This document shows positions 12,693 to 38,329 of a DNA stretch of 64,000 bases, piece after piece. Both the position numbers and the translations under genes were made by a program. This DNA is from a phage. Below the pieces are notes generated by a model that had not been told where the DNA came from, did not search any database, and saw only the letters and a program-made list of their open reading frames with translations. The stretch lies in the sequence record PX667085.1. One strand, given 5' to 3'. How positions within the stretch are numbered: the stretch's first letter is position 1; each line of letters begins with the position of its first letter.

Positions 12693-13667
12693 ATGCAACT
12701 TGGTTTCCCAATTATTGATGTAGTTGTTTTAGTTGGTATTTTGGCATTGTCTATTGGTATCGATTTCTTTGGTCATAAAGAGAATAAAGAAATTGGAATT
12801 AAATCTGCTTTGCTTTGGTCTGTTTTTTGGATTGCTTTAGCTTTAGGATATTACGCATTCATTTGGGTAGAACATGGTAAAGAGTTTGCCGCGCTTTTCC
12901 TAAGTGGCTATGTGTTGGAAAAGAGTCTTTCTGTAGATAACCTGATGGTGTTCATGGCAATTTTTGCAAGCTTTGGAATTAAGAGCACACATCTCCAACA
13001 TAAGATTTTACTTTGGGGGATTGCAGGAGCCATTGTCTTCCGAGGTATTTTTGTTGCAGCAGGGACCGCTTTGTTTAACCTTCATTGGTCGGTCCAAGTG
13101 TTGTTCGGTTTGATTGTAGCTTGGTCTGCCGTGGCTATCATCAAAGGTGGTGACGAAGAAGAGGATATTGATTACTCTAAGCATTGGGCTGTTCGTTTAG
13201 TAGGTAAAGTTCTGCCTGTGCACAATGCACTAGATGGTGAAAAGTTCATTACCATTAAGAATGGTATTAAATATGCAACTCCTGCTCTTCTTTGTGTGTT
13301 TGTTATTGAGCTTACAGATATTGTCTTCTCTTTTGATTCAGTTCCGGCTGTGATCGGTGTGACACAAGAACCTCTGCTAGTTTATTCTGCAATGCTGATG
13401 GCTGTTCTTGGTTTACGTGCACTTTTCTTTGTGTTAAGTGTAGCTGTGAAATATCTGGTTCACTTAGAGAAAGCTGTTGCTGTGGTTCTGGTGTTTGTCG
13501 GTGCTAAACTTATGTATCACCCGTTCGGTGAAACACTTCATGCCAAATGGTCATTCCTCCCGCATGATATTTCCCCTAACGTAAGTCTGATGATTGTTCT
13601 AGGCACATTAGCTCTTGGTGTTATTGCAAGCTTTATCTTCCCTGAAAAAGAAGAAGCTGCTGTTTAA
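12693..13667 (+). CDS. terC: TerC-family integral membrane protein
   Basis: Multi-pass membrane protein with the EKSLSVDN motif characteristic of the TerC family. Confidence 0.75.
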   Translation: MQLGFPIIDVVVLVGILALSIGIDFFGHKENKEIGIKSALLWSVFWIALALGYYAFIWVEHGKEFAALFLSGYVLEKSLSVDNLMVFMAIFASFGIKSTHLQHKILLWGIAGAIVFRGIFVAAGTALFNLHWSVQVLFGLIVAWSAVAIIKGGDEEEDIDYSKHWAVRLVGKVLPVHNALDGEKFITIKNGIKYATPALLCVFVIELTDIVFSFDSVPAVIGVTQEPLLVYSAMLMAVLGLRALFFVLSVAVKYLVHLEKAVAVVLVFVGAKLMYHPFGETLHAKWSFLPHDISPNVSLMIVLGTLALGVIASFIFPEKEEAAV

Positions 13668-13673
13668 TAGATG

Positions 13674-13698
13674 AGCCTCCTTCGGGAGGCTATTTTAT
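13674..13698 (+). terminator. rho-independent terminator
   Basis: agcctcc-ttcg-ggaggct hairpin followed by a T-rich tail. Confidence 0.6.
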
Positions 13699-13709
13699 AG
13701 GAGAGACTT

Positions 13710-14060
13710 ATGAATAATTTTGATGAAATTCAAGAACTTATTTGGGATTTATCTGGTGATGTGGATTACGTTTTAGATTACCTTTCAAAAGTTTACCCTG
13801 GGGTAAGCGTTATGATTGTGACCAAAGATCCAATTAATTTGCCTCCTAATGTTGTAGCTTGTTGTGGAAGTGGTTCAGGAGAAGTAGAGCCTGTATCTCG
13901 TTGGGAATTAACTAAAGCTGTTTCAAAACGAAACGGTGAAGTTTTGAATATTGATATCGAACAAATATGGACTTCTCCAGCAGCCAAATGGAACGATCCA
14001 AATGGTTGGGATTTGTTCTTCTGGGATAATGAAACTGATGATGAGGTATTTTTAAAATGA
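13710..14060 (+). CDS. hypothetical protein (116 aa)
   Basis: ORF with ribosome binding site. Confidence 0.55.
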   Translation: MNNFDEIQELIWDLSGDVDYVLDYLSKVYPGVSVMIVTKDPINLPPNVVACCGSGSGEVEPVSRWELTKAVSKRNGEVLNIDIEQIWTSPAAKWNDPNGWDLFFWDNETDDEVFLK

Positions 14061-14302
14061 AATACTTGTTGGTTGTGTTTGAAAATATCTGTTTTGCAAT
14101 AGGGTTGTTTGTTGTAATTTTTGTATTGACAAGCGTAATCAACGGCAGTAAAGTGAGTTTATACCGAGATGGAGAGCAACTTTATTGCTTCTCTGGAGAT
14201 TTCAAACACAGATGTATTAATAGTCAAAATGAGGAAAGCAAATATGAAAAAACTAGCCCTGATTTTAATTGGTTGTATCTTTTTAACAGCTTGCGAGGAT
14301 GA
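14057..14302 (+). CDS. possible small membrane protein (81 aa)
   Basis: ATGA overlap with upstream stop and a hydrophobic N-terminus, but overlaps the lipoprotein gene by 59 nt. Confidence 0.35.
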   Translation: MKYLLVVFENICFAIGLFVVIFVLTSVINGSKVSLYRDGEQLYCFSGDFKHRCINSQNEESKYEKTSPDFNWLYLFNSLRG

Positions 14303-14681
14303 AACAAATCCTGCACAATACCAACAACCTCCTCAACAATACGCTCAACAAGGATCTGACGGAGATACAACTATTATCAACAATGGTGGCGGTTCTAGTA
14401 GTAGCGGTGTTGGTGAGTTTGCTACAGGTATGTTGTTAGGGCATATGATGAGTGGTGGTAGTAATCGTAACAGTGGGGATTATAACGATAACAGAACGAT
14501 TATTAATAAGCATTATAATACACCTAAACCGAAAACTAATTTTTATGGTAAGCCTAAACAAGAGATAAAAACTTATGAAAAGCCGAGACAAACTTTTAAA
14601 ACAAATAGTAGCTATACAACTCGTAAATCTTACAATAGCCCTTTAAGTAAAAAGAGTTCATCTCGTAGCAAGCGACGTTAA
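14244..14681 (+). CDS. putative lipoprotein, Gln/Ser/Gly-rich
   Basis: MKKLALILIGCIFLTAC lipobox-type signal after GAGGAAA; low-complexity mature region. Confidence 0.55.
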   Translation: MKKLALILIGCIFLTACEDETNPAQYQQPPQQYAQQGSDGDTTIINNGGGSSSSGVGEFATGMLLGHMMSGGSNRNSGDYNDNRTIINKHYNTPKPKTNFYGKPKQEIKTYEKPRQTFKTNSSYTTRKSYNSPLSKKSSSRSKRR

Positions 14682-14695
14682 TAAGGAGAAAAACA

Positions 14696-15289
14696 ATGAC
14701 AATTTCTATTCGTACTTCCATTACAGGTGTTAAAAGTTTGCCTAATGCTTTGCAAATCACACGTGCTTTGAGGGATACGTTCTCTGCTGTGGATGAGCAT
14801 AAGATGCTCGATAATCTCTCAAATTGGCCCTATTTTCATTATTTTAAAAATGAAGACGACGAGTTTATAGACGCTGTTTCTTACGGTTATGATTTCGGTA
14901 AGGAGGTTTCTCCTGAAGAATTTGTAGCTACAGTATTTCCAAACGGTTTGCCTACTCGCAGTAAACGTAAAAAAGGACCAAAAAACAAGAAACGTGCTAC
15001 TAATAAAGCTACCATTTTCTTTACTGATGGCACACAATATACGATTAAAGATTTTGAAGAGGTATCTTATACAGCAGGTGGGAGTCTTTCTTTCTACACC
15101 ATCAAAAAACAAAACTATACGTTCAGCCATGTTTCTAACATGATTGAAATGTTAGTAGAAGATATTGAAAGCGTGGCTGTGTTAGGTATGCATAAAAGCT
15201 TTTTAATTACAAATATTTCAGATTTCAGTGCAAGTTTATCTGGCCCTGATTTTGAAGCCACGACCACGTATTTCGCTTTTAAGGTGTAA
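14696..15289 (+). CDS. hypothetical protein (197 aa)
   Basis: AAGGAG ribosome binding site. Confidence 0.55.
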   Translation: MTISIRTSITGVKSLPNALQITRALRDTFSAVDEHKMLDNLSNWPYFHYFKNEDDEFIDAVSYGYDFGKEVSPEEFVATVFPNGLPTRSKRKKGPKNKKRATNKATIFFTDGTQYTIKDFEEVSYTAGGSLSFYTIKKQNYTFSHVSNMIEMLVEDIESVAVLGMHKSFLITNISDFSASLSGPDFEATTTYFAFKV

Positions 15290-15292
15290 GTT

Positions 15293-15883
15293 ATGCATAC
15301 CGAGAGAGACTTGCAACTCTTGTGGTGGGAAGTGATGCAGGAAATAAAAGAAGATTTTCCTGTTTACTACAACATGTTACGTGAAGCAGGATATAAAGCT
15401 TGTGTTAGAAACAAAGTGAATAACTCTTTCGGTTGGTGCAACTACCGAGATAAAATTGTTGTTGTAAATTGGCACTTGCATAAGAACTCCACAAGAGATA
15501 TGATCGTGGATACAATGAAGCACGAAATTGCTCATGCTATTGATGGTTGTATGGGTAAGTTTAGTAGACACGGTGCTCATTGGCAAAAACTGGCAGCAGA
15601 GTTAGGGGCTAATCCTAAAGCCACTTCCAAAGAGCCGTTGAACCACGAATATAAATATGTTCTTGTTCTGGTAGATAGGTTTGCGACAAGATGTGTTAGA
15701 GGTTATAATCGTAAACCTAATCGCATGTACCCAGGTAAGCAACCTAATATGTGGTTGAAATCAGATAAAGAAGGGACCGAAGGAAAATTATGGTTGTATA
15801 AATGGGACGATTGGGTTAAAGTAGCTAAAGAGTACGGTGTTTCACCATATATAAGAGATGCAGAAGAGGAGAATGAAGAATGA
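15293..15883 (+). CDS. SprT-like zinc metallopeptidase domain protein
   Basis: HEIAH (HExxH) motif in an SprT-like context. Confidence 0.45.
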   Translation: MHTERDLQLLWWEVMQEIKEDFPVYYNMLREAGYKACVRNKVNNSFGWCNYRDKIVVVNWHLHKNSTRDMIVDTMKHEIAHAIDGCMGKFSRHGAHWQKLAAELGANPKATSKEPLNHEYKYVLVLVDRFATRCVRGYNRKPNRMYPGKQPNMWLKSDKEGTEGKLWLYKWDDWVKVAKEYGVSPYIRDAEEENEE

Positions 15884-16992
15884 CAAGTCCATTTTTAAAA
15901 GCAGCTACTGGTGGTCAGAAGAAGCCTGAAATGAGCGTATTTGCTGCAACAACAGATGCAAGTAAATCTGTATTCGCTCCAAGCGTGTTAGATGCCAGTC
16001 CTGTTTATGCACCAGCGGCACCGCAAGAAGTTCCAGTTTTGCCTTCTATGACCCGACAAGAGATTGAAGAGATTGGGGCAGAGGCAGGAACAACCTTGCG
16101 TTCCTTGAATGCCGAGGTGTTAAAACATCAACGTAGTAATCAAGGCGATCAGATGAGTGAACGACTCACAGCTTTGATTAAACAGGCAAAACAACTTGAT
16201 CCAAACTCTATTAAACAAAGCAAGGGTATTACTAAACTCATTAAAAAAGTTATGGGTATGAAAGAAGACCTGTTCGGGGAGTTTGATAATGTTAATAACC
16301 GTATTGAAGAGTTGGTAAAGAACCTTCAAATGGATATTCGCAAAGAAGAAGATTCCTTGGTATATCTTGAAAAGCTACATCAAGCTATTGGACAATATGC
16401 TGCAAGTTTGAACCGAGATATGCAGCTTCTAACAGCAACCTATGAAAAAGAAGAACAAGCTTTGGCTGCTCTTCCAGAAGATGCAGTAGAACAGCGACAA
16501 GTGATCCGAGATACTTTGGATCTTCTGGAGATTCGTATTGCAGATTTAAAAGCATTGCGCCTACTGTGTGTCCAAATGGGACCGCGTGTACAAGGTATGC
16601 AAAAAGTTTCTGCAAGCTTAATGCGATCTGCGCGTAACATAGTAAATAATGTTATTCCTGCTTACTCTGCTAACTTCTCAATGTATATCGAGAGCTTACG
16701 TCAAATGAAAGCAGCAGAGACGCAGAATAACGTTCTTGATGAATTTAACCTGGCAATTAAACTGGGTAGCGATCTTGCCACACAGAATCAGATCGAAGCA
16801 GCAGCACTGGCTAACCGTCAAGTGTTGGATATTGAAACTCTGCGTCACGATCAGGAAAACTTGGTTAAGATGTTGGAAGAAACTAACCGCATCAATACGG
16901 AAGCCCGTGCTGCTCGTGTTGATTATATTAATGAAGTTCAATCTCTGGAAGACGGGATGGTAGCTGCTGTGAAACGAGGGCTTGGTAAATGA
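15880..16992 (+). CDS. hypothetical alpha-helical protein (370 aa; TelA-like is a speculation)
   Basis: Disordered Ala/Pro-rich N-terminus then long helical region; ATGA overlap. Confidence 0.5.
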   Translation: MTSPFLKAATGGQKKPEMSVFAATTDASKSVFAPSVLDASPVYAPAAPQEVPVLPSMTRQEIEEIGAEAGTTLRSLNAEVLKHQRSNQGDQMSERLTALIKQAKQLDPNSIKQSKGITKLIKKVMGMKEDLFGEFDNVNNRIEELVKNLQMDIRKEEDSLVYLEKLHQAIGQYAASLNRDMQLLTATYEKEEQALAALPEDAVEQRQVIRDTLDLLEIRIADLKALRLLCVQMGPRVQGMQKVSASLMRSARNIVNNVIPAYSANFSMYIESLRQMKAAETQNNVLDEFNLAIKLGSDLATQNQIEAAALANRQVLDIETLRHDQENLVKMLEETNRINTEARAARVDYINEVQSLEDGMVAAVKRGLGK

Positions 16993-17186
16993 GAATCCGT
17001 ATCTATATAATTGATGAAGACATTGGTGTCCGTTATGATGACGAAAAACGATTCGCACCGATGGGAGGCATATATCCCCCAAGTGTTCTAGCAGTTTGTC
17101 GTGATTGTTATATTTATGAAGGTTGTCGTAACTTCCGTAAATTCGAACTCCTTGCAGATATTGACTTCAATGAGGAGGAGGAGTAA
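16989..17186 (+). CDS. hypothetical protein (65 aa)
   Basis: ATGA overlap with upstream gene. Confidence 0.45.
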   Translation: MRIRIYIIDEDIGVRYDDEKRFAPMGGIYPPSVLAVCRDCYIYEGCRNFRKFELLADIDFNEEEE

Positions 17187-17359
17187 TGAAAATATTACGA
17201 GTGAATATTGAAACTGCTTGGTGTGGATGCAATGAGGTTGTGGATATCGAAATTGAAGATGATATGTCTCAAGAGGATATAGAAGATCTTGCACACGAAA
17301 CCTTTCAGGATTATTGTAATTACGGGTTCCATATTTTAGAGGAGGAAGAAGATGTATAA
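17186..17359 (+). CDS. small acidic hypothetical protein (57 aa, absent from ORF track)
   Basis: ATG overlaps upstream stop (TAATG); GGAGGAGGAG ribosome binding site; 3-prime end overlaps next start. Confidence 0.35.
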   Translation: MKILRVNIETAWCGCNEVVDIEIEDDMSQEDIEDLAHETFQDYCNYGFHILEEEEDV

Positions 17360-17750
17360 TCCAACAGGTATTCTTTTAAAACTTACAGTAACAGACCCTA
17401 CTCTTTTCACTAAGTTAGCAAGTGGTGAAGTTTATGAAGTAATGAAAGATGGTGACGGTTGGTGTTATCTTTGTGGCTACTTCCTCTGTGATGCAGAAGA
17501 GTTAGAGTCCATTGTAACTAAAGGTTTTTATGAAGAACCAGGGTTCCGTGTGGAAACTACGCAGAAACCTGATACCATTACGCTGACTCGACAGGAACTG
17601 ATCACAATCATTGAAGATGCTTTTATTGATGGCTGGAATACACAAGATAATGACTGGGGTGGACCCGAAGCTTTTCTGGAACATCATAAAGCTTATGGAG
17701 AATTTTGTGAAACCACTGTAGCTCTTGATAATCTGAAGGAGGGTTTGTAA
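17352..17750 (+). CDS. hypothetical protein (132 aa)
   Basis: GAGGAGG ribosome binding site. Confidence 0.55.
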   Translation: MYNPTGILLKLTVTDPTLFTKLASGEVYEVMKDGDGWCYLCGYFLCDAEELESIVTKGFYEEPGFRVETTQKPDTITLTRQELITIIEDAFIDGWNTQDNDWGGPEAFLEHHKAYGEFCETTVALDNLKEGL

Positions 17751-18319
17751 TGGGTTGCTTTAGTTTTCTGTGTAAGGAGTCGGGCAAAGCTGCCCTCTCC
17801 ACCTCTTTCGATGGATCTCCTTGCTATCTCTTTCTACTGAAAGATGGAAAGGTTATCGAAGAGATGCACGGCAATTATGATAGTTATGGGCGTGTCTTCT
17901 CCAGTAAGCAGGATGCTCACGGGAACAGAGAAAGCTTTAAATGGACTATACCTTGGAGCGACGTTTGTGATCTTATGTTCTCTGTAAACCGTGGAGACGG
18001 TATTGCTATGGTTTTAGCAGAACACTTTACAGGAGAAGCCCCCACAGAACGATCCGAGGATGATCCTAATCAAGGTTGGGGAGACGGAGAAGAAGAGGAA
18101 GAAGAGGATTATTTCTACAGCACCGAAAATAATATTTTCAAACGTGTTGACAACCCTTATCATAAAGTGCATAATGTCCTCACTGAAACAGAAGACGACA
18201 AAATGGAAATTGAAGAAGATGATCCTCTTGTAACACTTCCTATAAGTGAGTTACAAAAGATCACTAAGGAAGCTTACGATTTGGGCTTCAAAATTGGTAG
18301 AGGAGGTATGCGTGTTTAG
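17750..18319 (+). CDS. hypothetical acidic protein (189 aa)
   Basis: TAATG overlap; poly-Glu stretch. Confidence 0.55.
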   Translation: MGCFSFLCKESGKAALSTSFDGSPCYLFLLKDGKVIEEMHGNYDSYGRVFSSKQDAHGNRESFKWTIPWSDVCDLMFSVNRGDGIAMVLAEHFTGEAPTERSEDDPNQGWGDGEEEEEEDYFYSTENNIFKRVDNPYHKVHNVLTETEDDKMEIEEDDPLVTLPISELQKITKEAYDLGFKIGRGGMRV

Positions 18320-18590
18320 ATTCAATATTCAAGAAGAAAAAAGTCAAGATTTACCTATTGCTTTCGAAGATCTTGACGTAGGGGCAACATTCATGTATTA
18401 TGATGCCTATGAAGACGCAGGGTTGGATACCTACCGTAACTTGGTGTTCATTAAAAATTCCACAAACAGTGCGATTTGTATTAATGGATCACTAGCACAA
18501 CGAGGCTATACTCATTGCATCCCACCAGATACAAATATGGTGGAAGTAGATTTAGAAGTTACCAATATTACACTTAAGAAGGAGAAATAA
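18312..18590 (+). CDS. small hypothetical protein, cassette paralog A
   Basis: GTG start 5 nt after GGAGG; paralog of 19612-19881 (shared DLDVG.TF, LEV.LTV.ITLK). Confidence 0.5.
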   Translation: MFRFNIQEEKSQDLPIAFEDLDVGATFMYYDAYEDAGLDTYRNLVFIKNSTNSAICINGSLAQRGYTHCIPPDTNMVEVDLEVTNITLKKEK

Positions 18591-18591
18591 T

Positions 18592-19386
18592 ATGTCCGAG
18601 AAAATCAGCCTGAAAAAACGTCAAGAAAACCTTGCTTTCTCTCTGAAAAAGAATAAGAACCTGAATGAAGGTAAGATTGTTCTTCGTGTAGCATGTGCTC
18701 TAGATATTTCTGGTAGTATGCATGGTCTATATTCTAGTGGGGTAGTGAGTGATTTTGTAGGTAAACTGCTTCCTTTTGGTATGCTGTTCGACGATAATCA
18801 ACAAATTGATATGTGGGCCTTCAATACGAGTTCCCAAGAGCTTACTCCAGCAACAGCAGACGTTTACGATGACTATGTTGGTAAATGTATGCGTAATGTT
18901 CGTATCGGAGGTGGAACAAATTACGCCCCTGTAATGGCAGATATCTACGATGAGTATTTTGGCACTGTTACCAAATATATTACCACTAAACAAGTGGTAC
19001 AAGAGGAGGCTCCAAAGAAAGGCTTCTTTAATCGTCTGCTTGGTAAAACTGAAACAGTGTCTGTAGAGCGTGAAAAAGTTGTAGCTGTATCTGAACCAGG
19101 TGCTGACGTTACCCCTGGTGTTGTATTCTTCCAGACGGATGGTGAGAATGGTGATCCTAGTGCTGTTCGTCGTCTTATTGAAGAGAATAAGAATAAACCT
19201 ATTTATTGGTTCATGGTTGGCGTTGGTAATGAGAAGTTTGGGTTCCTGAAAGAACTGGCAAATGCTTATGATAATGTTGGTTTTATTGGCATTAAAGATT
19301 TAGACTTGACAGATTCAGAGCTTTATGACAAACTCTTATCTGAGGAGTTCGGAGAGTGGGTTGTTAAAGTAGGTGCTAAAAAATGA
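18592..19386 (+). CDS. von Willebrand factor A (vWA) domain protein, TerY-like
   Basis: MIDAS motif DISGSM, downstream GGTNY and QTDGENGD; N-terminal KISLKK motif shared with TerD. Confidence 0.65.
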   Translation: MSEKISLKKRQENLAFSLKKNKNLNEGKIVLRVACALDISGSMHGLYSSGVVSDFVGKLLPFGMLFDDNQQIDMWAFNTSSQELTPATADVYDDYVGKCMRNVRIGGGTNYAPVMADIYDEYFGTVTKYITTKQVVQEEAPKKGFFNRLLGKTETVSVEREKVVAVSEPGADVTPGVVFFQTDGENGDPSAVRRLIEENKNKPIYWFMVGVGNEKFGFLKELANAYDNVGFIGIKDLDLTDSELYDKLLSEEFGEWVVKVGAKK

Positions 19387-19631
19387 TCGACGAGCTTGCC
19401 TCTCAAGTCATAGAAAATTATTGGCGCGAGAGAGAAGCTTTCATTATGCGCAGTCTCAAAGAGTATTTCATTGGGACTGTGCGAATGGAAGATATTGTAA
19501 GTAGAGTGGAGATTCATGTATGGCCCGATTATGAAGAATGGGTTGACAAAGAAAATGAAAATGCTATAATTCTTCGTATATACAAACCGGAGATAACATT
19601 AGGAGGAAGAAGTGTTAAACTTCGAAATTGA
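19383..19631 (+). CDS. hypothetical protein (82 aa)
   Basis: ATGA overlap with vWA gene. Confidence 0.45.
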   Translation: MIDELASQVIENYWREREAFIMRSLKEYFIGTVRMEDIVSRVEIHVWPDYEEWVDKENENAIILRIYKPEITLGGRSVKLRN

Positions 19632-19881
19632 TGAGCAAAAAGTAAATAAACGATGCCTTACCATTAAAGATTTGGATGTAGGAGATACTTTCGTCTATGA
19701 AAATGCATTTGACGAAAATGGTTTAGACCTTAGTGAAATCATTGTTTATTTAAAAGTAGATGATGGGGAAAATGATTATTCTGCTGTAGAACTAAACCAT
19801 CATGCACAATTAGTATCAATCCAAAACACATCTAAGCTTTTGGAAGTAGAATTGACTGTAACTGGTATTACACTTAAATAA
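19612..19881 (+). CDS. small hypothetical protein, cassette paralog B
   Basis: GTG start 5 nt after AGGAGG; paralog of 18312-18590. Confidence 0.5.
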   Translation: MLNFEIDEQKVNKRCLTIKDLDVGDTFVYENAFDENGLDLSEIIVYLKVDDGENDYSAVELNHHAQLVSIQNTSKLLEVELTVTGITLK

Positions 19882-19896
19882 TAGAGGAGACAAAAG

Positions 19897-20499
19897 ATGA
19901 CTGATAAAATTTCCCTGAAAAAAGGCTCTAGCGAAAAAATTTCCCTGAAGAAAGTTGCTCCGGCTCTGAAAGAACTGCGCCTGGAATTCTCTTGGAAATC
20001 TGATTCTAAACTGGATCTGGATGTAAGTGCACTGGTTTGTCGTCACAATGCCGCTGGTAATCCTGAAATGCTGTCTGCACGTCATCTGGTTTGCTATGCT
20101 AACAAGTTTGATCCTGAACGTTCTACCTTCGCTGGTGACGATGTTCGTGATGGAACTGGCAGCATGGAGCAGATTGATATTACTCTGGCTAAAATCTCTC
20201 CTGATGCACAAGAGATTGCCTTTGTTCTGACCATTGATGATGATACAGGTCTGAAACGTTTTGGTCATGCTTCTGAAGGTATGCTTAAAATCTTCGACTC
20301 CGAGCGCAATGTGGAAATTCTGGATTTTGACTTCCTGGCTCCTGAAGTAGCTGGCAACACAATCTGCCACGTGGCTTCCTTGGTTCGTGAAGATGGGGAA
20401 TGGAAGCTGAAAGCATATGGTGTAGGTAAAGCTGGTCTGGATATTTGTGATGTGGTGATGGCCTTCGGTGGTAAAAAAGAATGGTATGAATGTCCATAA
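19897..20499 (+). CDS. terD: TerD-domain protein
   Basis: Matches E. coli TerD (recalled from memory): N-terminal SLKKG...ISLKK, DLDVSAL, GDDVRDGTGS, IAFVLTIDD, DGEWKLKAYG. Confidence 0.8.
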   Translation: MTDKISLKKGSSEKISLKKVAPALKELRLEFSWKSDSKLDLDVSALVCRHNAAGNPEMLSARHLVCYANKFDPERSTFAGDDVRDGTGSMEQIDITLAKISPDAQEIAFVLTIDDDTGLKRFGHASEGMLKIFDSERNVEILDFDFLAPEVAGNTICHVASLVREDGEWKLKAYGVGKAGLDICDVVMAFGGKKEWYECP

Positions 20500-20598: not shown

Positions 20599-21120
20599 TT
20601 GCTGATAAAAAACTTTGTAACAGTTGCGTTACTATCCTTAACTGCTTTTACATTTACACCTGTTGTGGCGAAAGCCGAAGCTGCAAACGTAAAAACCGCT
20701 AAAGTAGTTCACAAATGTACAAAGCAATATAATGATAAAATTCTATTAGCTTGTGCAATTTACGCAGAAGGTCGCGGTCTGGGTAAAAAAGGAATGAATG
20801 CCGTTGGGAATGTGGTAATCAACAGAAGAAATGATACCTACTTCCCTAACACAGTCAGAGGAGTCTTGTTCCAGAAAGGACAATTCTCATATGCGAAAAC
20901 TTTTAACGTAACAGAGAAAGATAAGTGGCAGGAAGCAAAAGCAATAGCGGAACGTTTACTTTATTTAGAGAAACATTTTCCTGAATTGCGGTCTGTTTTA
21001 GATGTTACTAAAGGTGCTCTATACTTCAAGAAACGGAATATAAGGACAAACTGGGAACGTGATATGCGTCTTGTTTATCGAGATAAAGTGCATGGTTTCT
21101 ATCTACCAAAGGGGAGTTAA
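20599..21120 (+). CDS. SleB/CwlJ-like cell wall hydrolase with signal peptide (candidate endolysin)
   Basis: AIYAEGRG...NVVINR...QFSYA motifs; N-terminal signal peptide; TTG start after AAAAGGAGG. Confidence 0.65.
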   Translation: MLIKNFVTVALLSLTAFTFTPVVAKAEAANVKTAKVVHKCTKQYNDKILLACAIYAEGRGLGKKGMNAVGNVVINRRNDTYFPNTVRGVLFQKGQFSYAKTFNVTEKDKWQEAKAIAERLLYLEKHFPELRSVLDVTKGALYFKKRNIRTNWERDMRLVYRDKVHGFYLPKGS

Positions 21121-21821: not shown

Positions 21822-22385
21822 ATGATTTATTATATTACTCCCTATCTGACAGGAAATATCGGCAAGGCTATCAATGAAGCCATTGCCGTTCTTCCAGATG
21901 ATAGTTGGGTGTGTTTAAGAGATACCGATACAATGTTCCTCCTACCTGATCAACCATCTATGCTTGAAGAGCTTGTTATGTCAAATCCGCCTTTTGATGT
22001 AATAGGTGCAACTTGTAACAGGTTAGGCAGTGGTTATCAGCTTTTCTCTAACCAAATTAACGATGATCCAGATATTCTAAACCATATAGAATATGCTAAG
22101 ATTGCAAGAGAATATCATAAAGTGAGTGTTGAAGAAGTTCCTTTCGGAACACCTCTAGCAGGTTTCTTCTTGCTTTTTAGAAAATCATTGTGGAATGAAA
22201 TTCCTTTCGAAGAAAAATCTATCCAATTCGACTTAATTTTCTCTCGCACTTTACATGAAAAAGGGAAGAGGTTAGGATTGATGCGGGGAATGTATCTGTT
22301 TCACATTTACAGATTAGGTCAAACAAATCCTCAACGGTCTATACATCATTTATTACACTGTCATGATCACAGTAAAACTATTTAG
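21822..22385 (+). CDS. putative glycosyltransferase (GT-A-like)
   Basis: N-terminal Y..G..N.A and DTD (DxD-like) arrangement; weak. Confidence 0.4.
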   Translation: MIYYITPYLTGNIGKAINEAIAVLPDDSWVCLRDTDTMFLLPDQPSMLEELVMSNPPFDVIGATCNRLGSGYQLFSNQINDDPDILNHIEYAKIAREYHKVSVEEVPFGTPLAGFFLLFRKSLWNEIPFEEKSIQFDLIFSRTLHEKGKRLGLMRGMYLFHIYRLGQTNPQRSIHHLLHCHDHSKTI

Positions 22386-22393
22386 GAGAGAAA

Positions 22394-23077
22394 ATGGAAA
22401 ATATTAAAATTGGAGTGGGTGTTATCACTGTAGGTGTCCGTCCACTTAAAGACTACCTTGTAACAGATCCACGTGCAGATTTTCGAGTATTCAACGATCC
22501 AGATCGTAAAGGTGTAGCTTATGCCAGGAATGAACTTATGCACCAGTTTTATGAAGAAGGTTATGATTATTGGTTTATTTTTGACGACGATTGCTACCCA
22601 GTCATGGAGGGATGGGAAACATACTTTGTAGGTCAAGCTGTCTCTGGAGGATGGGATTTCTTTGGTATGCCGGAGTATTTCAAAGATAAAGTTGTTGGAA
22701 GCAAAGGAGAAGTTATTCTCTGGGAACTTGCAATGTGTCAATTTGCAATGTATTCTCGTGCCGTTGTTGAGAAGATGGGTTATTTCCGTCCTTACACTCA
22801 CGGCTATGGTTTTGAAGATGCTGAATGGGGACACCGTTTGCAAGCTGCTGGTTTGAATCATGGTATTCAGGCAACACCTTGTCCACTTCGTATCATGGCT
22901 TATATCCACCCAGACGATGTTTTTGGAAACAATCCTATGCCTTTTGCTAATCTGACAAAAGAAGAGAAAGAAGCTGCTATCGGGATTAACTGGGAAGAAT
23001 ATAAAGCATCTTTAGAGGATATTAAAAATGGGAAAATCCGAATTTCCTATGAGGAGGCACTGGCACATGTCAAATAA
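22394..23077 (+). CDS. family 2-like glycosyltransferase (GT-A)
   Basis: GVAYARNE, FIFDDD (DxD) and GYGFEDAEWGHRL (ED motif) in canonical GT2 order. Confidence 0.6.
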   Translation: MENIKIGVGVITVGVRPLKDYLVTDPRADFRVFNDPDRKGVAYARNELMHQFYEEGYDYWFIFDDDCYPVMEGWETYFVGQAVSGGWDFFGMPEYFKDKVVGSKGEVILWELAMCQFAMYSRAVVEKMGYFRPYTHGYGFEDAEWGHRLQAAGLNHGIQATPCPLRIMAYIHPDDVFGNNPMPFANLTKEEKEAAIGINWEEYKASLEDIKNGKIRISYEEALAHVK

Positions 23078-24014
23078 AAAATGGTCTAAACTAAAAATTG
23101 ATGCAAAACCTCATAGCGGTTGTGACTATCATCGTATTGTTATGCCATTTAACAACAATAATTTTCAACCTAAGAAAGATATTGTTGTGTTTAACCGTAT
23201 CCACTCTAAAGGTGCAGAATACGTTTTATCTTTGAAACGTCAAGGTGTTAAGGTTGTTGTAGATTTAGATGATTTTTACCAACTTAATCCAGAGCATTAT
23301 TTAGCAAGTCTATACGAGTCAAACACTCATGCTATTGTAGCTATGGTTAAGCTTGCTGATGTGGTTATTGTGACTACAGAATATTTGGCATATAAGATCC
23401 GTCACTTAAATAGAAATGTCGTTGTGATCCGAAATGCACTTCCTTTTGATAGCGGACAATTCACTTTGTCAAATGATCGTTCATCCGGTACCCCTGTTGT
23501 ATGGGCTGGCGGTGCTAGTCACGAACCAGATTTACGACTAGTCTCTAATACTTTCGATGATGAACTTCTTACTATTGCGGGATATGAAGCATCACAAAGC
23601 ATCACGGGACAAGAGTGGATTAAGATTCGCAGAAATTTACCAAATGCCAAATATAAAGCTGCTGTAAAAGATTTAGATAATTACATGAGTGTTTACGAAA
23701 GTCATGCTATTGCTATAGCTCCTTTGGTAGACAATGATTTTAATAATTGTAAAAGTAATCTCAAAATCCTGGAAGCTGGAGCAAAAGGTATTCCGATTAT
23801 TTGTTCTAAGGTATTACCTTATTTTAACCCTGTAGATGCTCGCGCTGTTGCTTACGCAGAGAATAAAGCAGAATGGCATTACGAAATTGTTAAGCTTCTT
23901 CGCAATCCAAACTATCGGGAAGATCGTGGCTTGTTCTTGGCTGAACATGTTCGAACACATTATAATCTGGCAGATGCAAACGAGTTGCGACGCCAGGTTA
24001 TTGAAAGTTTGTAG
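23067..24014 (+). CDS. putative glycosyltransferase (GT-B-like), paralog 1
   Basis: GAGGAGG then ATG at 23067; KSNLKILEAGAKGIPIICS resembles the GT-B C-terminal motif; paralog of the next gene. Confidence 0.45.
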   Translation: MSNKKWSKLKIDAKPHSGCDYHRIVMPFNNNNFQPKKDIVVFNRIHSKGAEYVLSLKRQGVKVVVDLDDFYQLNPEHYLASLYESNTHAIVAMVKLADVVIVTTEYLAYKIRHLNRNVVVIRNALPFDSGQFTLSNDRSSGTPVVWAGGASHEPDLRLVSNTFDDELLTIAGYEASQSITGQEWIKIRRNLPNAKYKAAVKDLDNYMSVYESHAIAIAPLVDNDFNNCKSNLKILEAGAKGIPIICSKVLPYFNPVDARAVAYAENKAEWHYEIVKLLRNPNYREDRGLFLAEHVRTHYNLADANELRRQVIESL

Positions 24015-24021
24015 GTGAAGT

Positions 24022-24966
24022 ATGGGACAAATAATTCTTGACAATCGTAACGGAATCAATTATAGTGTCTGCGATTTCCATAGGGTAGTGCTGCCTTACT
24101 CAAGGCAGTTCTCTTCACAACCTAAATACAACGTTTTCGTTTTTAACGGAGTGCCAACAAAAGGTAAAGAGGGCTTTTTAGCCCTTAAAAACCTAGGCTT
24201 TAAAATGGTTATGGATTTGGATGACTCTTTAGTTATTCCAAAAGGACACATGTTAGAAGGTATTTTTGAATCAGGTATTCGTGAACATTTAAAATGGTTT
24301 TTAGAGCACAGTGATCTTGTTACAACTACGACACCTGCCTTGCAAGTTGAACTTTCACAATACAATGATAATGTGCACATAATCCCTAATGGACTTCCTT
24401 ATGACGAAGGTCAATTTGTGTTGACCCGTGATCGCTACTCCAAAACTCCATTAGTCTGGGCTGGAAGTGAAACACATAAGCAAGATTTGGCTATCTTGCC
24501 CGATTTTGGTAAAGATCTTACAATATGTGGTTTTCGTAGGGATTCTGAAGTTTTAAGTAGTCGTGAATGGTCTGTAATCAGAGAAAATGTAGCACCAACT
24601 TGTGTTTATGAAGGTGTAAGACCATATGCCAACTACATGGAATCTTACGATGGTCATCAAATCAGTCTTGCGCCACTGATTGATAACGTGTTTAATAATG
24701 CAAAAAGCAATCTTAAAATTCTTGAGGCAGGTGCTAAGGGTTTACCTTTGATCTGTTCTCCTCGTGAGAATTATCATACACAAGAGTTTAAAGATCTGTT
24801 GTTCTTTGCTGAAACACCTTCCGAGTGGAAAGATATTACGGAATACTTATTAAGTGCTCCCGATGTTTGCATGGAGAAAGGATTAGCATTAGCTAAGTAT
24901 GTCAGGACTCATTATCACATTGATGTGTTGAATGAGCGTCGTAGACTTTTATTTGAGGAGCTATAA
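24022..24966 (+). CDS. putative glycosyltransferase (GT-B-like), paralog 2
   Basis: Shares CD(Y/F)HR, DLDD, TPVVWAG and KSNLKILEAGAKG motifs with paralog 1. Confidence 0.45.
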   Translation: MGQIILDNRNGINYSVCDFHRVVLPYSRQFSSQPKYNVFVFNGVPTKGKEGFLALKNLGFKMVMDLDDSLVIPKGHMLEGIFESGIREHLKWFLEHSDLVTTTTPALQVELSQYNDNVHIIPNGLPYDEGQFVLTRDRYSKTPLVWAGSETHKQDLAILPDFGKDLTICGFRRDSEVLSSREWSVIRENVAPTCVYEGVRPYANYMESYDGHQISLAPLIDNVFNNAKSNLKILEAGAKGLPLICSPRENYHTQEFKDLLFFAETPSEWKDITEYLLSAPDVCMEKGLALAKYVRTHYHIDVLNERRRLLFEEL

Positions 24967-25244
24967 TGATTAACACTTTTGATTTTGAATACACCACTCG
25001 TAACGGGAAAGCCTTAGTTGTGGAGGTGGATTACTATTATGAAGAGCCTAACCCGCTTTCTCGTGAAAGTGATTGGGATTACCACGGAGGGCTTTTAATT
25101 GACGGTATTCGTTTTTATGAAGGCTCTACAGAAGTTTTTGAAAAAGATTTAAATGTAACTGTAGCAGAAATTGCTTTCCAATTTAGAAAGCATATGGAAG
25201 AACTAGAAGCAGAATATATGATGGAGACTAACGAACCATTTTAA
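24966..25244 (+). CDS. hypothetical protein (92 aa)
   Basis: TAATG overlap. Confidence 0.5.
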   Translation: MINTFDFEYTTRNGKALVVEVDYYYEEPNPLSRESDWDYHGGLLIDGIRFYEGSTEVFEKDLNVTVAEIAFQFRKHMEELEAEYMMETNEPF

Positions 25245-36304: not shown

Positions 36305-38329
36305 TTATCGTGTTACAACAACCATGTCCACGATATTACCCACACCAGGATACGTTAATTGCAAAATTGTTACTGCGTTAGCAGTAGTTGCTATTTCTGT
36401 ATCATTCAGTGCTCCATAAGACGCATCTAGTGTAACCGTGTGTCCCGTTGTATCTTGAATCAAATAAATCATTGCTGAAAATGCTTTAGGTTTTGTAGAT
36501 CCAGTGACACCAGGCCATGCTCCAACTGTCAGAGCGTCAGTTACTGTAACAACATACATATTGGAAGTTCCAGAAGGAGTCCAAGATGCTCCAGAGTTGG
36601 CAGTAGTTGTTTCAAGTTCCATGAAACCTGCTGTAACTTTAGTTGGTGTTATAGCTTCTGTAGGATCTGATCCTGATATTTCGATCCAGTTCCCATCAGA
36701 ACGACCATACGTCAAGCCGTCTTGAGGTGCTTCTGGTATACTAGGAAGAGTTCCTATAAGTGTCCACGTAGAAGAATCTGTTTTCTTGAACACTGCTCCA
36801 GTGGTAGTATTGAAGGCGTAATCATTGATAACACCATCTCCTGCGACTGGATTAGTTGTTGCTACAAACCACTGTGCGCCGTCCTTACCGTTGGTCCCAT
36901 CTGTACCGTTGGTTCCGTTTGTTCCAGGATCACCCTTATCTCCTTTATCCCCTTTTTCACCTTTGTCGCCTTTAATACTTCCCATGTCAACAAAAGATGC
37001 GGAATTGGTGTCTTGATCGTAGGTATAGATATAAAGATTACTAGTATCTTCAGTTAAGTAGGCATCACCATAGTTATTATAAACAGGGAGAGCTTCACTG
37101 TTCGGAACATGACCTTTAGCTGTAATTGATGTTCCTCCAAGACTGCCAACATTCATCCATTCTGTAGCATCTTGAACCCAAACATACAAATCATTATTAA
37201 TTTTATATGCATCACCTACTTCTCCAGTAGGAGGAAGTTCAGCTTCACTGTTCAGAACCCCGATAATCTCTAAGCCTGATCCTGTTGCACCCACTGGTCC
37301 TTGTGGACCTAGTTCACCTTGTGGACCTCGCTCTCCTTGATCACCCTTGTCTCCTTTTGGACCTTTAAGTGAGGCAATAAAATCTACTTCTGTCCCTTCA
37401 TTACCAGCATCCAGCCAACTTTGATATGCAGATTTCCCTTCATCTCCATCTGTTCCATCAAGACCGTCTTTACCTGCCTCACCTTGTGGACCTTGAGGAC
37501 CAACAATATTACCCATGTTGACCCAAGCTGTCCCATTAGAGACATAAAGATTACCATTGATAGAATAAGCTTGGCTTACGTTTTCAGAGTTAGGTTGTGG
37601 TAAGTTACTTGTAGAAGGTAAATCCCCACGATAATCAAAACCGTTGGCGTTAACACCAGGTGCTCCCTGTGGCCCTGTAGGACCAACATCACCTTTATCA
37701 CCTTTTATAGAGGTAAGAAAGTCATAAACAGATCCTGTATTACCATCTGCCAACCATACCTCATAAGCTGATTTCCCTTCTGGTCCAAGAGAAGAAATAA
37801 GTTTCCAAACAGAACCATCCCAAGCATAGATTACATCGCCTACGATATAACCGTCCCCTGCAACGTTACCTGTAGATGGTAGCTCACTAGTGCTTGCTAA
37901 TGATCCTTTAATATTAAGTTGAGCACCAGTATCTCCTTTCAAAGAAGCAAGCCATTGTGCTTCTGTTCCAACAAAACCATTATCAAGTGCGATCTGATAA
38001 GCTGATTTACCAGCTTCAGGTATTGTTTCCGACAGATCATCGATCTGTTGCTGCACTGCCGTAAACTTGGCATTGATAATTGCTATATCATCAGCGGTCC
38101 CAACATTTTGCCATGCAAGGGAAGAAATACCACCTGTGGTGGCTGGTGTAGAGTTTGCTGGAACTACTTTAGGAAAAGTTCCTTTCCATTGGTAATAATT
38201 CCCTTCTGCTGCTAACAGCAAAACTTCACGGGAATTACGTAATGTAAAACCTGCCTCAAAACTGCGACGTTTTCGATAAGTAGCTTCTACCAGATCGGCT
38301 ATCGCACTATTAGGTCTTGTTAAATTCAT
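36305..38329 (-). CDS. tail fibre protein with collagen-like Gly-X-Y repeats
   Basis: GPQGPQGEAGKDGLDG, GDKGEKGDKGDKGDPG and three repeats of a GKSAYQ/E...SLKG module. Confidence 0.65.
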   Translation of the reverse strand: MNLTRPNSAIADLVEATYRKRRSFEAGFTLRNSREVLLLAAEGNYYQWKGTFPKVVPANSTPATTGGISSLAWQNVGTADDIAIINAKFTAVQQQIDDLSETIPEAGKSAYQIALDNGFVGTEAQWLASLKGDTGAQLNIKGSLASTSELPSTGNVAGDGYIVGDVIYAWDGSVWKLISSLGPEGKSAYEVWLADGNTGSVYDFLTSIKGDKGDVGPTGPQGAPGVNANGFDYRGDLPSTSNLPQPNSENVSQAYSINGNLYVSNGTAWVNMGNIVGPQGPQGEAGKDGLDGTDGDEGKSAYQSWLDAGNEGTEVDFIASLKGPKGDKGDQGERGPQGELGPQGPVGATGSGLEIIGVLNSEAELPPTGEVGDAYKINNDLYVWVQDATEWMNVGSLGGTSITAKGHVPNSEALPVYNNYGDAYLTEDTSNLYIYTYDQDTNSASFVDMGSIKGDKGEKGDKGDKGDPGTNGTNGTDGTNGKDGAQWFVATTNPVAGDGVINDYAFNTTTGAVFKKTDSSTWTLIGTLPSIPEAPQDGLTYGRSDGNWIEISGSDPTEAITPTKVTAGFMELETTTANSGASWTPSGTSNMYVVTVTDALTVGAWPGVTGSTKPKAFSAMIYLIQDTTGHTVTLDASYGALNDTEIATTANAVTILQLTYPGVGNIVDMVVVTR

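Follow-up and report, generated by a model that had tools for sequence, protein, structure and literature searches.

The phage DNA analysed here (PX667085.1, one strand of 64,000 nucleotides, hereafter the window) carries four consecutive glycosyltransferase (GT) genes at positions 21822–24966. We call them GT1 to GT4, and we regard the region with high confidence as a cassette for building a glycan. Between positions 21000 and 26000 the window shares 100% identity with Escherichia phage ECO340P1 and 95–99.7% with about 65 further phAPEC8-like myoviruses (genus Phapecoctavirus, Stephanstirmvirinae). The cluster is kept in about 130 phage genomes, a conservation far beyond chance. All four products match PHROG families (E 5e-78 to 4e-149), every one labelled glycosyltransferase, and RefSeq names all four genes 'glycosyltransferase' in the near-identical phage Mt1B1_P17. 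An earlier note made from the letters of the window had described four glycosyltransferase-like genes here, and the open reading frames (ORFs), the PHROG matches and the conserved motifs confirm it. The existence of the four genes is already on record; their function is not, and the literature that we found on them offers speculation about their role and no experiment. The cluster and the ORF that follows it are:

21822–22385 (+): GT1, 187 amino acids (aa), small soluble glycosyltransferase of predicted GT-A fold, DxD motif RDTDT at residues 33–37
22394–23077 (+): GT2, 227 aa, soluble glycosyltransferase of predicted GT-A fold, one half of the conserved core pair
23067–24014 (+): GT3, 315 aa, predicted GT-B enzyme (Glycos_transf_1 clan, CgeB-like), ancestral-type copy and other half of the core pair
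24022–24966 (+): GT4, 314 aa, tandem paralog of GT3
24966–25244 (+): conserved ORF of 92 aa that separates the GT-B genes from the primase-helicase gene

For GT3 the longest ORF begins at 23028; a start at 23067 is backed by RefSeq and by the alignment of homologues. The genes are separated by gaps of 7–8 nt, except for an 11-nt overlap of GT2 with GT3, and each of GT1–GT4 is preceded by a Shine-Dalgarno-like sequence. No terminator on the + strand was found between them. With this tight packing, GT1–GT4 look co-transcribed with the 92-aa ORF, the primase-helicase gene, a methyltransferase-like gene and the DNA polymerase gene. The cluster sits in the transcription unit of the replication module, and sigma-70-like promoters are found near it. 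The ATG of the 92-aa ORF overlaps the stop codon of GT4, and an ORF of 85–89 aa stands at the matching position in four more distant loci (L006, L011, L013 and L014). This ORF has no NCBIfam match and no BLAST counterpart among the cassettes of temperate phages; in the myovirus lineage it may move together with the cassette.

Predicted folds of the four enzymes

GT1 has its best PHROG match in phrog_14179 (E 8.5e-113) and matches no Pfam glycosyltransferase family. Residues D34 and D36, kept in at least 90% of homologues, define an RDxDT motif. An AlphaFold (AF2) model built on the homologue alignment reached a mean confidence (pLDDT) of 92.7, and its Foldseek matches in the PDB are solely GT-A enzymes, namely the GT domain of LH3/PLOD3, ppGalNAc-T2, COLGALT1, RmlT and SpsA (E 3e-4 to 5e-3, TMq 0.45–0.54). 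On the strength of this predicted model GT1 is structurally confirmed as a GT-A enzyme, an assignment that is new here. The GT1 family comprises 983 cluster representatives among 1.84 billion proteins. In its fusions a second GT-like domain follows at the C-terminus, of TOD1/MUCI70 GT-like type in 43 of 56 and of the GT2 family in others; such frequent fusion fits an enzyme working in tandem with another transferase.

The product of GT2 matches phrog_2456 (E 5.4e-78) and phrog_1579 (E 7e-12). Two motifs, FDDD (F63-D64-D65-D66) and YG.ED (residues 138–142), are invariant across its homologues. Its Pfam matches are all sub-threshold (TAGT, Glyco_transf_7C and Glycos_transf_2), that to Glycos_transf_2 (PF00535) scoring 13 bits against a cut-off of 23.3. 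The AF2 model, again built on the homologue alignment, has a pLDDT of 88.9, and its Foldseek matches in the PDB (STIV A197, TarP, B4GalT7, ppGalNAc-T2 and chondroitin synthases) are all GT-A enzymes. For GT1 and GT2 together, every significant PDB match is GT-A, with a probability of about 1.0 and TMq of 0.41–0.54. Among the viral models of BFVD, GT2-like proteins are matched with a TM of up to 0.75. Single-sequence searches of the PDB gave nothing meaningful for either protein, the A2 profile found no GT in the PDB, and no sequence similarity was detectable between GT1 and GT2. Both are related to Glycos_transf_2 at the fold level only. Thus the GT2-type motifs that the earlier note had read in 22394–23077 prove to be conserved across homologues, and the second GT-A-like ORF that it had suspected is GT1, as judged by the conserved DxD motif and the structure search for a GT-A fold which the note had suggested.

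The same note had recognized two paralogs of about 315 aa with a GT-B-like C-terminal motif, and this description stands. GT3 and GT4 share 41% identity (BLASTP, E 4e-77), unevenly distributed, with 48% in the C-terminal donor-binding part and 38% in the N-terminal part. The best PHROG match of GT3 is phrog_7162 (E 3.7e-149). The motif KSNLKILEAGAKG is conserved, with K228 and K232 invariant and E235 nearly so, and is the conserved donor-binding segment. In Pfam, GT4 passes PF13524 (25.2 bits, cut-off 25), GT3 stays under that cut-off at 20.6 bits, and its PF13692 match is sub-threshold too; an N-terminal Glyco_transf_4 match in the pair is weak (E 0.0014). Most GT-B homologues carry precomputed PF13524, PF13692 or PF00534 domains, and 11 ORFs in the 13 prophage loci described below match PF13692 at E 1e-4 or better. 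A single-sequence PDB search with GT4 gave nothing meaningful, with chance matches to ankyrin-repeat designs only. The profile search for a GT-B fold, also proposed in the note, was productive: the family profile of GT3 and GT4 matches the C-terminal domains of the GT4-family GT-B structures TreT, PglA and BshA (E 2e-3 to 3e-2). From these profile matches, GT3 and GT4 are assigned as predicted GT-B enzymes of the Glycos_transf_1 clan, CgeB-like. No NCBIfam model matches any of GT1–GT4. No clear transmembrane segment was found in the four proteins either, the maximal Kyte-Doolittle hydropathy over 19 residues being 0.76–1.65.

Since the single-copy GT-Bs of all other phage lineages are nearer to GT3 (41–54%) than to GT4 (36–40%), GT4 appears as a duplicate peculiar to the Stephanstirmvirinae-like lineage. 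Phapecoctavirus, Justusliebigvirus (two places per record) and the divergent contig L006 have both copies; one Justusliebigvirus record, OZ035770.1, has one GT-B place only. In two metagenome contigs, P0013 (69.9 kb) and P0014 (54.8 kb), we found a single hybrid GT-B whose N-terminal part is of GT3 type and whose C-terminal part is of GT4 type. The crossovers differ between the two contigs, and both lie at conserved motifs (LPFDEGQF and KSNLKILEAGAKG). The pattern resembles the outcome of unequal recombination between GT3 and GT4, with an assembly artefact as the alternative.

The mobile cassette and its probable sugar donor

Homologues were collected by a word-indexed search of 5.8 billion sequences, which gave a small number, 17–35 clusters per protein. 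Other large myoviruses (L011, L013 and L014) keep the order GT1, GT2, one GT-B, small ORF and primase. Outside the myoviruses the genes recur in temperate phages of very different types. An HK97-like prophage of Serratia sp. M24T3 has the order holins, endolysin, spanin, three small ORFs, GT1, GT2, GT-B, HNH, small terminase subunit (TerS), large terminase subunit (TerL) and capsid, with identities of 41% for GT1, 36% for GT2 and 51% for the GT-B to GT3. A P22-like contig has TerL, several small ORFs, GT-B, a 152-aa ORF, GT2 and portal, and a lambdoid phage has the Q antiterminator, accessory genes, GT2, GT-B, holin and lysozyme, terminase and portal. In four Pseudomonas genomes the prophage order is a Big_2 protein, GT2, GT-B, metallopeptidase, DUF2280, TerL, portal and MuF. 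Bacteroidota prophages, such as that of Flavihumibacter, show TerS, TerL, a TylF-like O-methyltransferase, two ORFs, GT-B, portal, MuF and capsid; the Flavihumibacter ORFs overlap or abut one another, TerL included. Over 13 prophage loci (150 ORFs), the small and large terminase subunits are the commonest neighbour families, followed by further GT-As (including a PLOD-type GT domain), hexapeptide acetyltransferases and TylF-like methyltransferases.

The minimal mobile unit is therefore GT2 plus a GT3-type GT-B, with GT1 as a frequent third member. A BLAST comparison of all ORFs of the window with those of the small carrier phages, looking for a co-transferred acceptor, found the GT genes alone in common. 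What is new here is the mobile core cassette, its recurrent setting in packaging and head modules across bacterial phyla, the lineage-specific duplication of the GT-B gene and the case against DNA as acceptor that is set out below. In a distant phage contig (L015, 7227–10733), the small terminase gene is followed by genes for a GT-B, a Glycos_transf_2 protein, a PLOD-type GT domain and a DegT/PseC-like aminotransferase; modules of several GTs with sugar-tailoring enzymes thus seem to be more widespread among phages. Distant GT-B relatives in metagenome-assembled genomes of Gammaproteobacteria and Dechloromonas (L033–L037; 25–30% identity) are parts of giant multidomain ORFs of 880–1700 aa and were set aside because of this other architecture.

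The near-identical complete genome NC_052662.1 encodes, at equivalog level, RmlC (TIGR01221, 225 bits, cut-off 156) and RmlD (TIGR01214, 236.5 bits, cut-off 224). Both genes lie at 117033–118435, about 30 kb past the end of the window and beside the ribonucleotide reductase genes. RmlA and RmlB were not found in this related complete genome and are presumably supplied by the host. Every E. coli makes dTDP-4-keto-6-deoxyglucose (dTDP, deoxythymidine diphosphate) for enterobacterial common antigen (ECA) via RffH and RffG. With this supply in the host, the phage would add the last two steps to dTDP-L-rhamnose, which is probably at least one of the sugar donors. In a distant 135-kb myovirus an RmlB-like nucleoside-diphosphate-sugar 4,6-dehydratase gene is inserted between GT1 and GT2, so 6-deoxyhexose synthesis is physically tied to the cassette there. 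The earlier note had proposed looking elsewhere in the genome for nucleotide-sugar or hydroxymethylase genes; the first were found, as RmlC and RmlD, and a hydroxymethylase of the ThyA family was not. The 'complete' dTDP-rhamnose pathway that has been stated for these phages (PMC7552041) was not reproduced here, as only RmlC and RmlD were found.

Phage DNA and host molecules as possible acceptors

The candidate acceptors of the sugars are phage DNA, host molecules and the virion itself. Judging by the adjacent replication genes, the earlier note had called sugar modification of the DNA plausible. The enzymes would then place rhamnose or other sugars on a modified base as a shield against host nucleases, as in the glucosylated hydroxymethylcytosine of T4 or in the TET/TAGT systems. 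Such a role was raised before by Olsen et al. 2020, who suggested, among possible explanations, that hydroxymethylated nucleotides are rhamnosylated (PMC7552041). The position of the cluster beside the genes for primase-helicase, an N6-adenine methyltransferase-like protein and DNA polymerase is consistent with it, and so are the location of rmlC and rmlD next to ribonucleotide reductase and weak profile matches to TAGT and to beta-glucosyl-HMC-alpha-glucosyltransferase. Expression late in infection, shortly before packaging, would suit DNA modification too. We nevertheless consider DNA glycosylation very unlikely, and the proposal of the note is not supported, on several grounds.

The known cases of phage DNA glycosylation require a hydroxymethylated base. 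The annotation of NC_052662.1 includes neither a ThyA-type hydroxymethylase nor a TET/JBP protein, and a Pfam scan of 55 of its poorly annotated proteins, all of about 130 aa or more, found no PF00303 and no TET_JBP. The match of GT2 to TAGT (PF20691) reaches 19.5 bits, under the cut-off of 27.5, and is confined to residues 32–68, the DxD region. The alpha- and beta-glucosyltransferases of T4, whose structures are both in the PDB, show no profile similarity and are absent from the PDB matches, either with single sequences to E 10 or with profiles to E 1. These T4 enzymes are GT-B enzymes, the fold class predicted for GT3 and GT4. They resemble the present cassette, as TAGT does, in being phage GTs encoded in regions of DNA metabolism; the cassette differs from both in that these scans found no hydroxymethylase or TET partner and in the high restriction sensitivity of a sister genus. 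In that phi92-like genus an orthologous four-gene cluster is present with 66–77% identity, including in phage Bas61 of the BASEL collection, and Bas60–62 were described as exceptionally susceptible to restriction–modification systems 'despite a putative dTDP glycosylation machinery' (Maffei et al., PMC8594841). Phapecoctavirus is missing from BASEL, so the restriction evidence comes from the sister genus and applies by orthology.

The genomic settings point the same way. The cassette lies by lysis or head genes elsewhere, also in lambdoid and HK97-like temperate phages that replicate host-dependently and have no base-modifying genes nearby. The adjacency to replication genes is thus a trait of one lineage only, which counts against a DNA target. 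As relatives stand beside head and packaging genes in unrelated phages, the particle or another non-DNA target is likelier than phage DNA. The sugar O-methyl-, acetyl- and aminotransferases that go with the cassette also hint at complex glycans. Taken together, the acceptor is likely not DNA, and the alternatives named in the earlier note, virion proteins and host glycans, are now more probable than DNA. The genome also encodes a divergent ThyX-like protein of 332 aa beside an NT5C-type deoxyribonucleotidase and close to the NrdAB genes (NC_052662.1 110429–112045; L003 41430–43046), with putative roles. The ThyX-like protein scores 33 bits with Pfam Thy1, above threshold, and 31 bits with NCBIfam thyX, far under the 88-bit cut-off. 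Whether predicted for ordinary synthesis of deoxythymidine monophosphate or for another reaction, it bears on what is left of the DNA-modification reading.

A second possibility is remodelling of a host envelope glycan. Here the enzymes would act on the inside of the membrane on undecaprenyl-linked intermediates, such as undecaprenyl-pyrophosphate-linked GlcNAc on the way to ECA or O-antigen, or on the lipopolysaccharide core. Rhamnose or other sugars would alter or cap a receptor glycan and so cause superinfection exclusion or keep progeny off debris; alternatively, undecaprenyl phosphate could be sequestered late in infection. A GT2-like GT-A with a GT4-like GT-B is the standard toolkit for O-antigen, ECA, capsule and teichoic acid, and the fold matches include the prophage teichoic-acid GT TarP and the Listeria rhamnosyltransferase RmlT. 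The GTs alone are common to the carrier phages, consistent with a host-encoded acceptor. The positions from Q to lysis in the lambdoid phage and from lysis to terminase are classic moron sites, and Stephanstirmvirinae use surface glycans as receptors (PMC8594841, PMC11990801).

Several features of the cassette disagree with an envelope target. It has no membrane protein, initiating phosphoglycosyltransferase, flippase, polymerase or transmembrane segment. Known seroconversion genes usually neighbour int/attP and show expression in the lysogen, and several of the present cassettes abut or overlap late head genes. Moreover, exchanging surface glycans takes long compared with a lytic cycle, and still about 130 strictly lytic genomes keep the cassette. 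The comparison with known surface-glycan modifiers is likewise mixed. As with TarP of S. aureus, a top fold match of GT2, and with GtrABC modules, the GTs are phage-borne accessory cargo. Unlike GtrABC modules, the cassette comes without membrane proteins of the GtrA, GtrB or GtrC type, and no Gtr family was found in the Pfam scan of GT1–GT4 or among the families listed for cassette neighbours. Unlike these prophage-borne modifiers, it is found in strictly lytic phages and, in prophages, within late head-gene operons. We consider envelope remodelling rather unlikely.

In the present phage and its myovirus relatives the cassette comes after a gene for a putatively secreted SleB-like cell-wall hydrolase, a further point in favour of an envelope role. 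This gene (20599–21120, +), annotated 'endolysin', encodes a SleB/Hydrolase_2-like protein and precedes the GT cassette in all myovirus relatives examined. Its N-terminus, MLIKNFVTVALLSLTAFTFTPVVAKAEA, looks by eye like a cleavable signal peptide. It is far from the Rz-like spanin gene, which adjoins the terminase gene in the complete genome.

Another cytoplasmic target is also conceivable. It could be a host protein (such as a factor of translation or defence), modified in the way that EarP rhamnosylates EF-P, or a small molecule (a metabolite or a nucleotide-like signal), and the outcome would be host takeover or anti-defence. The enzymes are soluble, there is no phage acceptor in common, and the cassette, a self-contained accessory module, passes between widely differing phages and host phyla in the manner of anti-defence genes. 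In addition, the cassette lies in the early/middle region directly downstream of a Ter-type stress-response cluster (about 12693–20499, +), which precedes the hydrolase and GT genes. Its recognized members, assigned by position, RefSeq annotation and Pfam matches on the syntenic loci L006 and L013, are:

12693–13667 (+): TerC-like
15880–16992 (+): TelA-like
18592–19386 (+): vWA-TerF-like
19897–20499 (+): TerD-like

This Ter cluster is absent from the temperate-phage contexts, however, and PDB profile and fold searches gave no similarity to protein-targeting toxin GTs or to EarP. Two to four transferases with sugar-tailoring enzymes suggest an oligosaccharide and not a single inactivating sugar. 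A target of this kind therefore seems unlikely to us. Matches to PRTase ComF-like, NADAR, Macro and HAD families were also seen among the proteins of the complete genome.

Virion proteins as possible acceptors

The soluble enzymes, the late operons beside head and packaging genes in temperate phages and the sugar-tailoring partners together point to an oligosaccharide that is assembled, late in lytic growth, on an acceptor in the cytoplasm. Our favoured, still tentative, choice for this acceptor is a virion protein. The two metal-dependent GT-A enzymes, GT1 and GT2, and the two CgeB-like GT-B enzymes, GT3 and GT4, would act as soluble proteins in the cytoplasm. Each would add one sugar, and a short oligosaccharide would be built jointly. 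The phage RmlC and RmlD would turn host dTDP-4-keto-6-deoxyglucose into the dTDP-L-rhamnose donor, and GT4, the lineage-specific duplicate, probably extends or branches the glycan. One or more virion proteins would be glycosylated in the cytoplasm during assembly, as in mycobacteriophage Che8. In full, it is possible that a co-transcribed four-enzyme cassette builds a rhamnose-containing glycan, with virion proteins as its carriers.

The closest parallel is found in mycobacteriophages. According to Freeman 2023 (Cell Host Microbe), as relayed in PMC11256854 and PMC12363180, the capsid proteins of Che8 and its relative Rita are glycosylated by phage-encoded GTs; in Che8, Corndog and Myrna, subunits of the capsid and the tail tube receive glycans from phage GTs and are thereby shielded from antibodies. 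The operon concerned (Che8 gp108–110, Corndog gp38), as far as it is described there, resembles the present cassette in consisting of adjacent soluble phage GTs outside the phage's own structural genes. Among GenBank phages beyond its own clade, GT2 has relatives in mycobacteriophages only, namely GT-A genes like that of Che8 gp108; remote tblastn matches were obtained in 352 Mycobacterium phage records (24–28% identity, E about 1e-7), annotated glycosyltransferase or galactosyltransferase. Sugar-methyltransferase partners, seen in relatives of the present cassette, are another shared trait. Unlike the mycobacteriophage operon, the present cassette belongs to phages of Gram-negative hosts, includes CgeB-like GT-Bs, would depend on a dTDP-rhamnose branch, and is known from its genes alone.

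A second parallel lies in the spore surface. The spore-surface toolkit of B. subtilis comprises CgeB, SpsA and the Sps rml genes, which make dTDP-rhamnose, and it decorates a proteinaceous shell assembled inside the cytoplasm of another cell. The phage cassette likewise combines a CgeB-family GT-B (PF13524), an SpsA-like GT-A (by fold match) and a dTDP-rhamnose supply. The similarity is at the family level only and is an analogy, orthology not having been demonstrated.

A number of observations weigh against virion proteins as the acceptor. No glycan is on record for any virion of the Stephanstirmvirinae. The direct similarity of GT2 to the N-terminal GT-A domain of Che8 gp108 is weak, with 22% identity and a pairwise E of 0.002, and hhalign comparison of the family profiles with Che8 gp109 and gp110 gave no signal, gp110 being the enzyme reported essential (Freeman 2023 as relayed in PMC11256854 and PMC12363180). 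By BLAST of all ORFs, the phage and the small cassette carriers have no structural protein in common; a common phage-encoded acceptor is thus not evident, a point in favour of a universal host target. No obvious Ser/Thr-rich C-terminal tail, the type of site used in Che8, was found on the capsid, decoration, tube or sheath proteins, which is another difference from the mycobacteriophage system. The region upstream of the terminase genes is a general accessory-gene hotspot, so position alone is weak evidence. In the present phage, with its GT genes in the replication-module unit and sigma-70-like promoters near, there is no sign of late expression. Finally, the GT-As of teichoic acid and polysaccharide synthesis match in fold at least as well as protein O-glycosyltransferases do.

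Among the structural proteins, one tail fibre deserves mention. Its gene (36305–38329, −; 674 aa) encodes four collagen-like Gly-X-Y runs rich in Lys and Thr, for example GDKGEKGDKGDKGDPGTNGTNGTDGTNGKDGAQ at 36872–36970, and in the Bas61 record the orthologue is named a lateral tail fibre carrying a type I collagen domain. Collagen glycosyltransferases are among the top fold matches of GT1, yet they match no better than other GT-A enzymes. Speculatively, the collagen-like tail fibre is a candidate substrate of the GTs. In the head module of NC_052662.1, a gene for a 160-aa protein (88391–88870; L003 19392–19871, −) is named 'DNA methyltransferase' in RefSeq and 'putative prohead protease' at the orthologous position of Bas61. 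A match to Peptidase_S78_2 (XkdF-like protease) was seen in the scan set containing this protein and was not traced to one protein.

A bolder and somewhat more doubtful form of virion glycosylation would make this the first such system of phages infecting Gram-negative bacteria. A mobile GT-A/GT-A/GT-B cassette fed by RmlC and RmlD would coat the capsid, the tail or the collagen-like fibre with a rhamnose-containing glycan in coliphages of wide therapeutic use (Phapecoctavirus, phi92-like), and the prophages of Serratia, Pseudomonas and Bacteroidota would do likewise.

Phapecoctavirus and phi92-like phages are among the coliphages with the broadest host range and are frequent candidates for phage therapy and biocontrol. 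If their virions are glycosylated, antibody recognition, clearance and stability would be affected, and virion glycosylation would extend beyond actinobacteriophages. If instead a host glycan is remodelled, the cassette would represent a receptor-masking mechanism of a lytic phage. Either way, the published speculation on DNA rhamnosylation is corrected, and a minimal mobile unit of GT2 and a GT3-type GT-B is defined.

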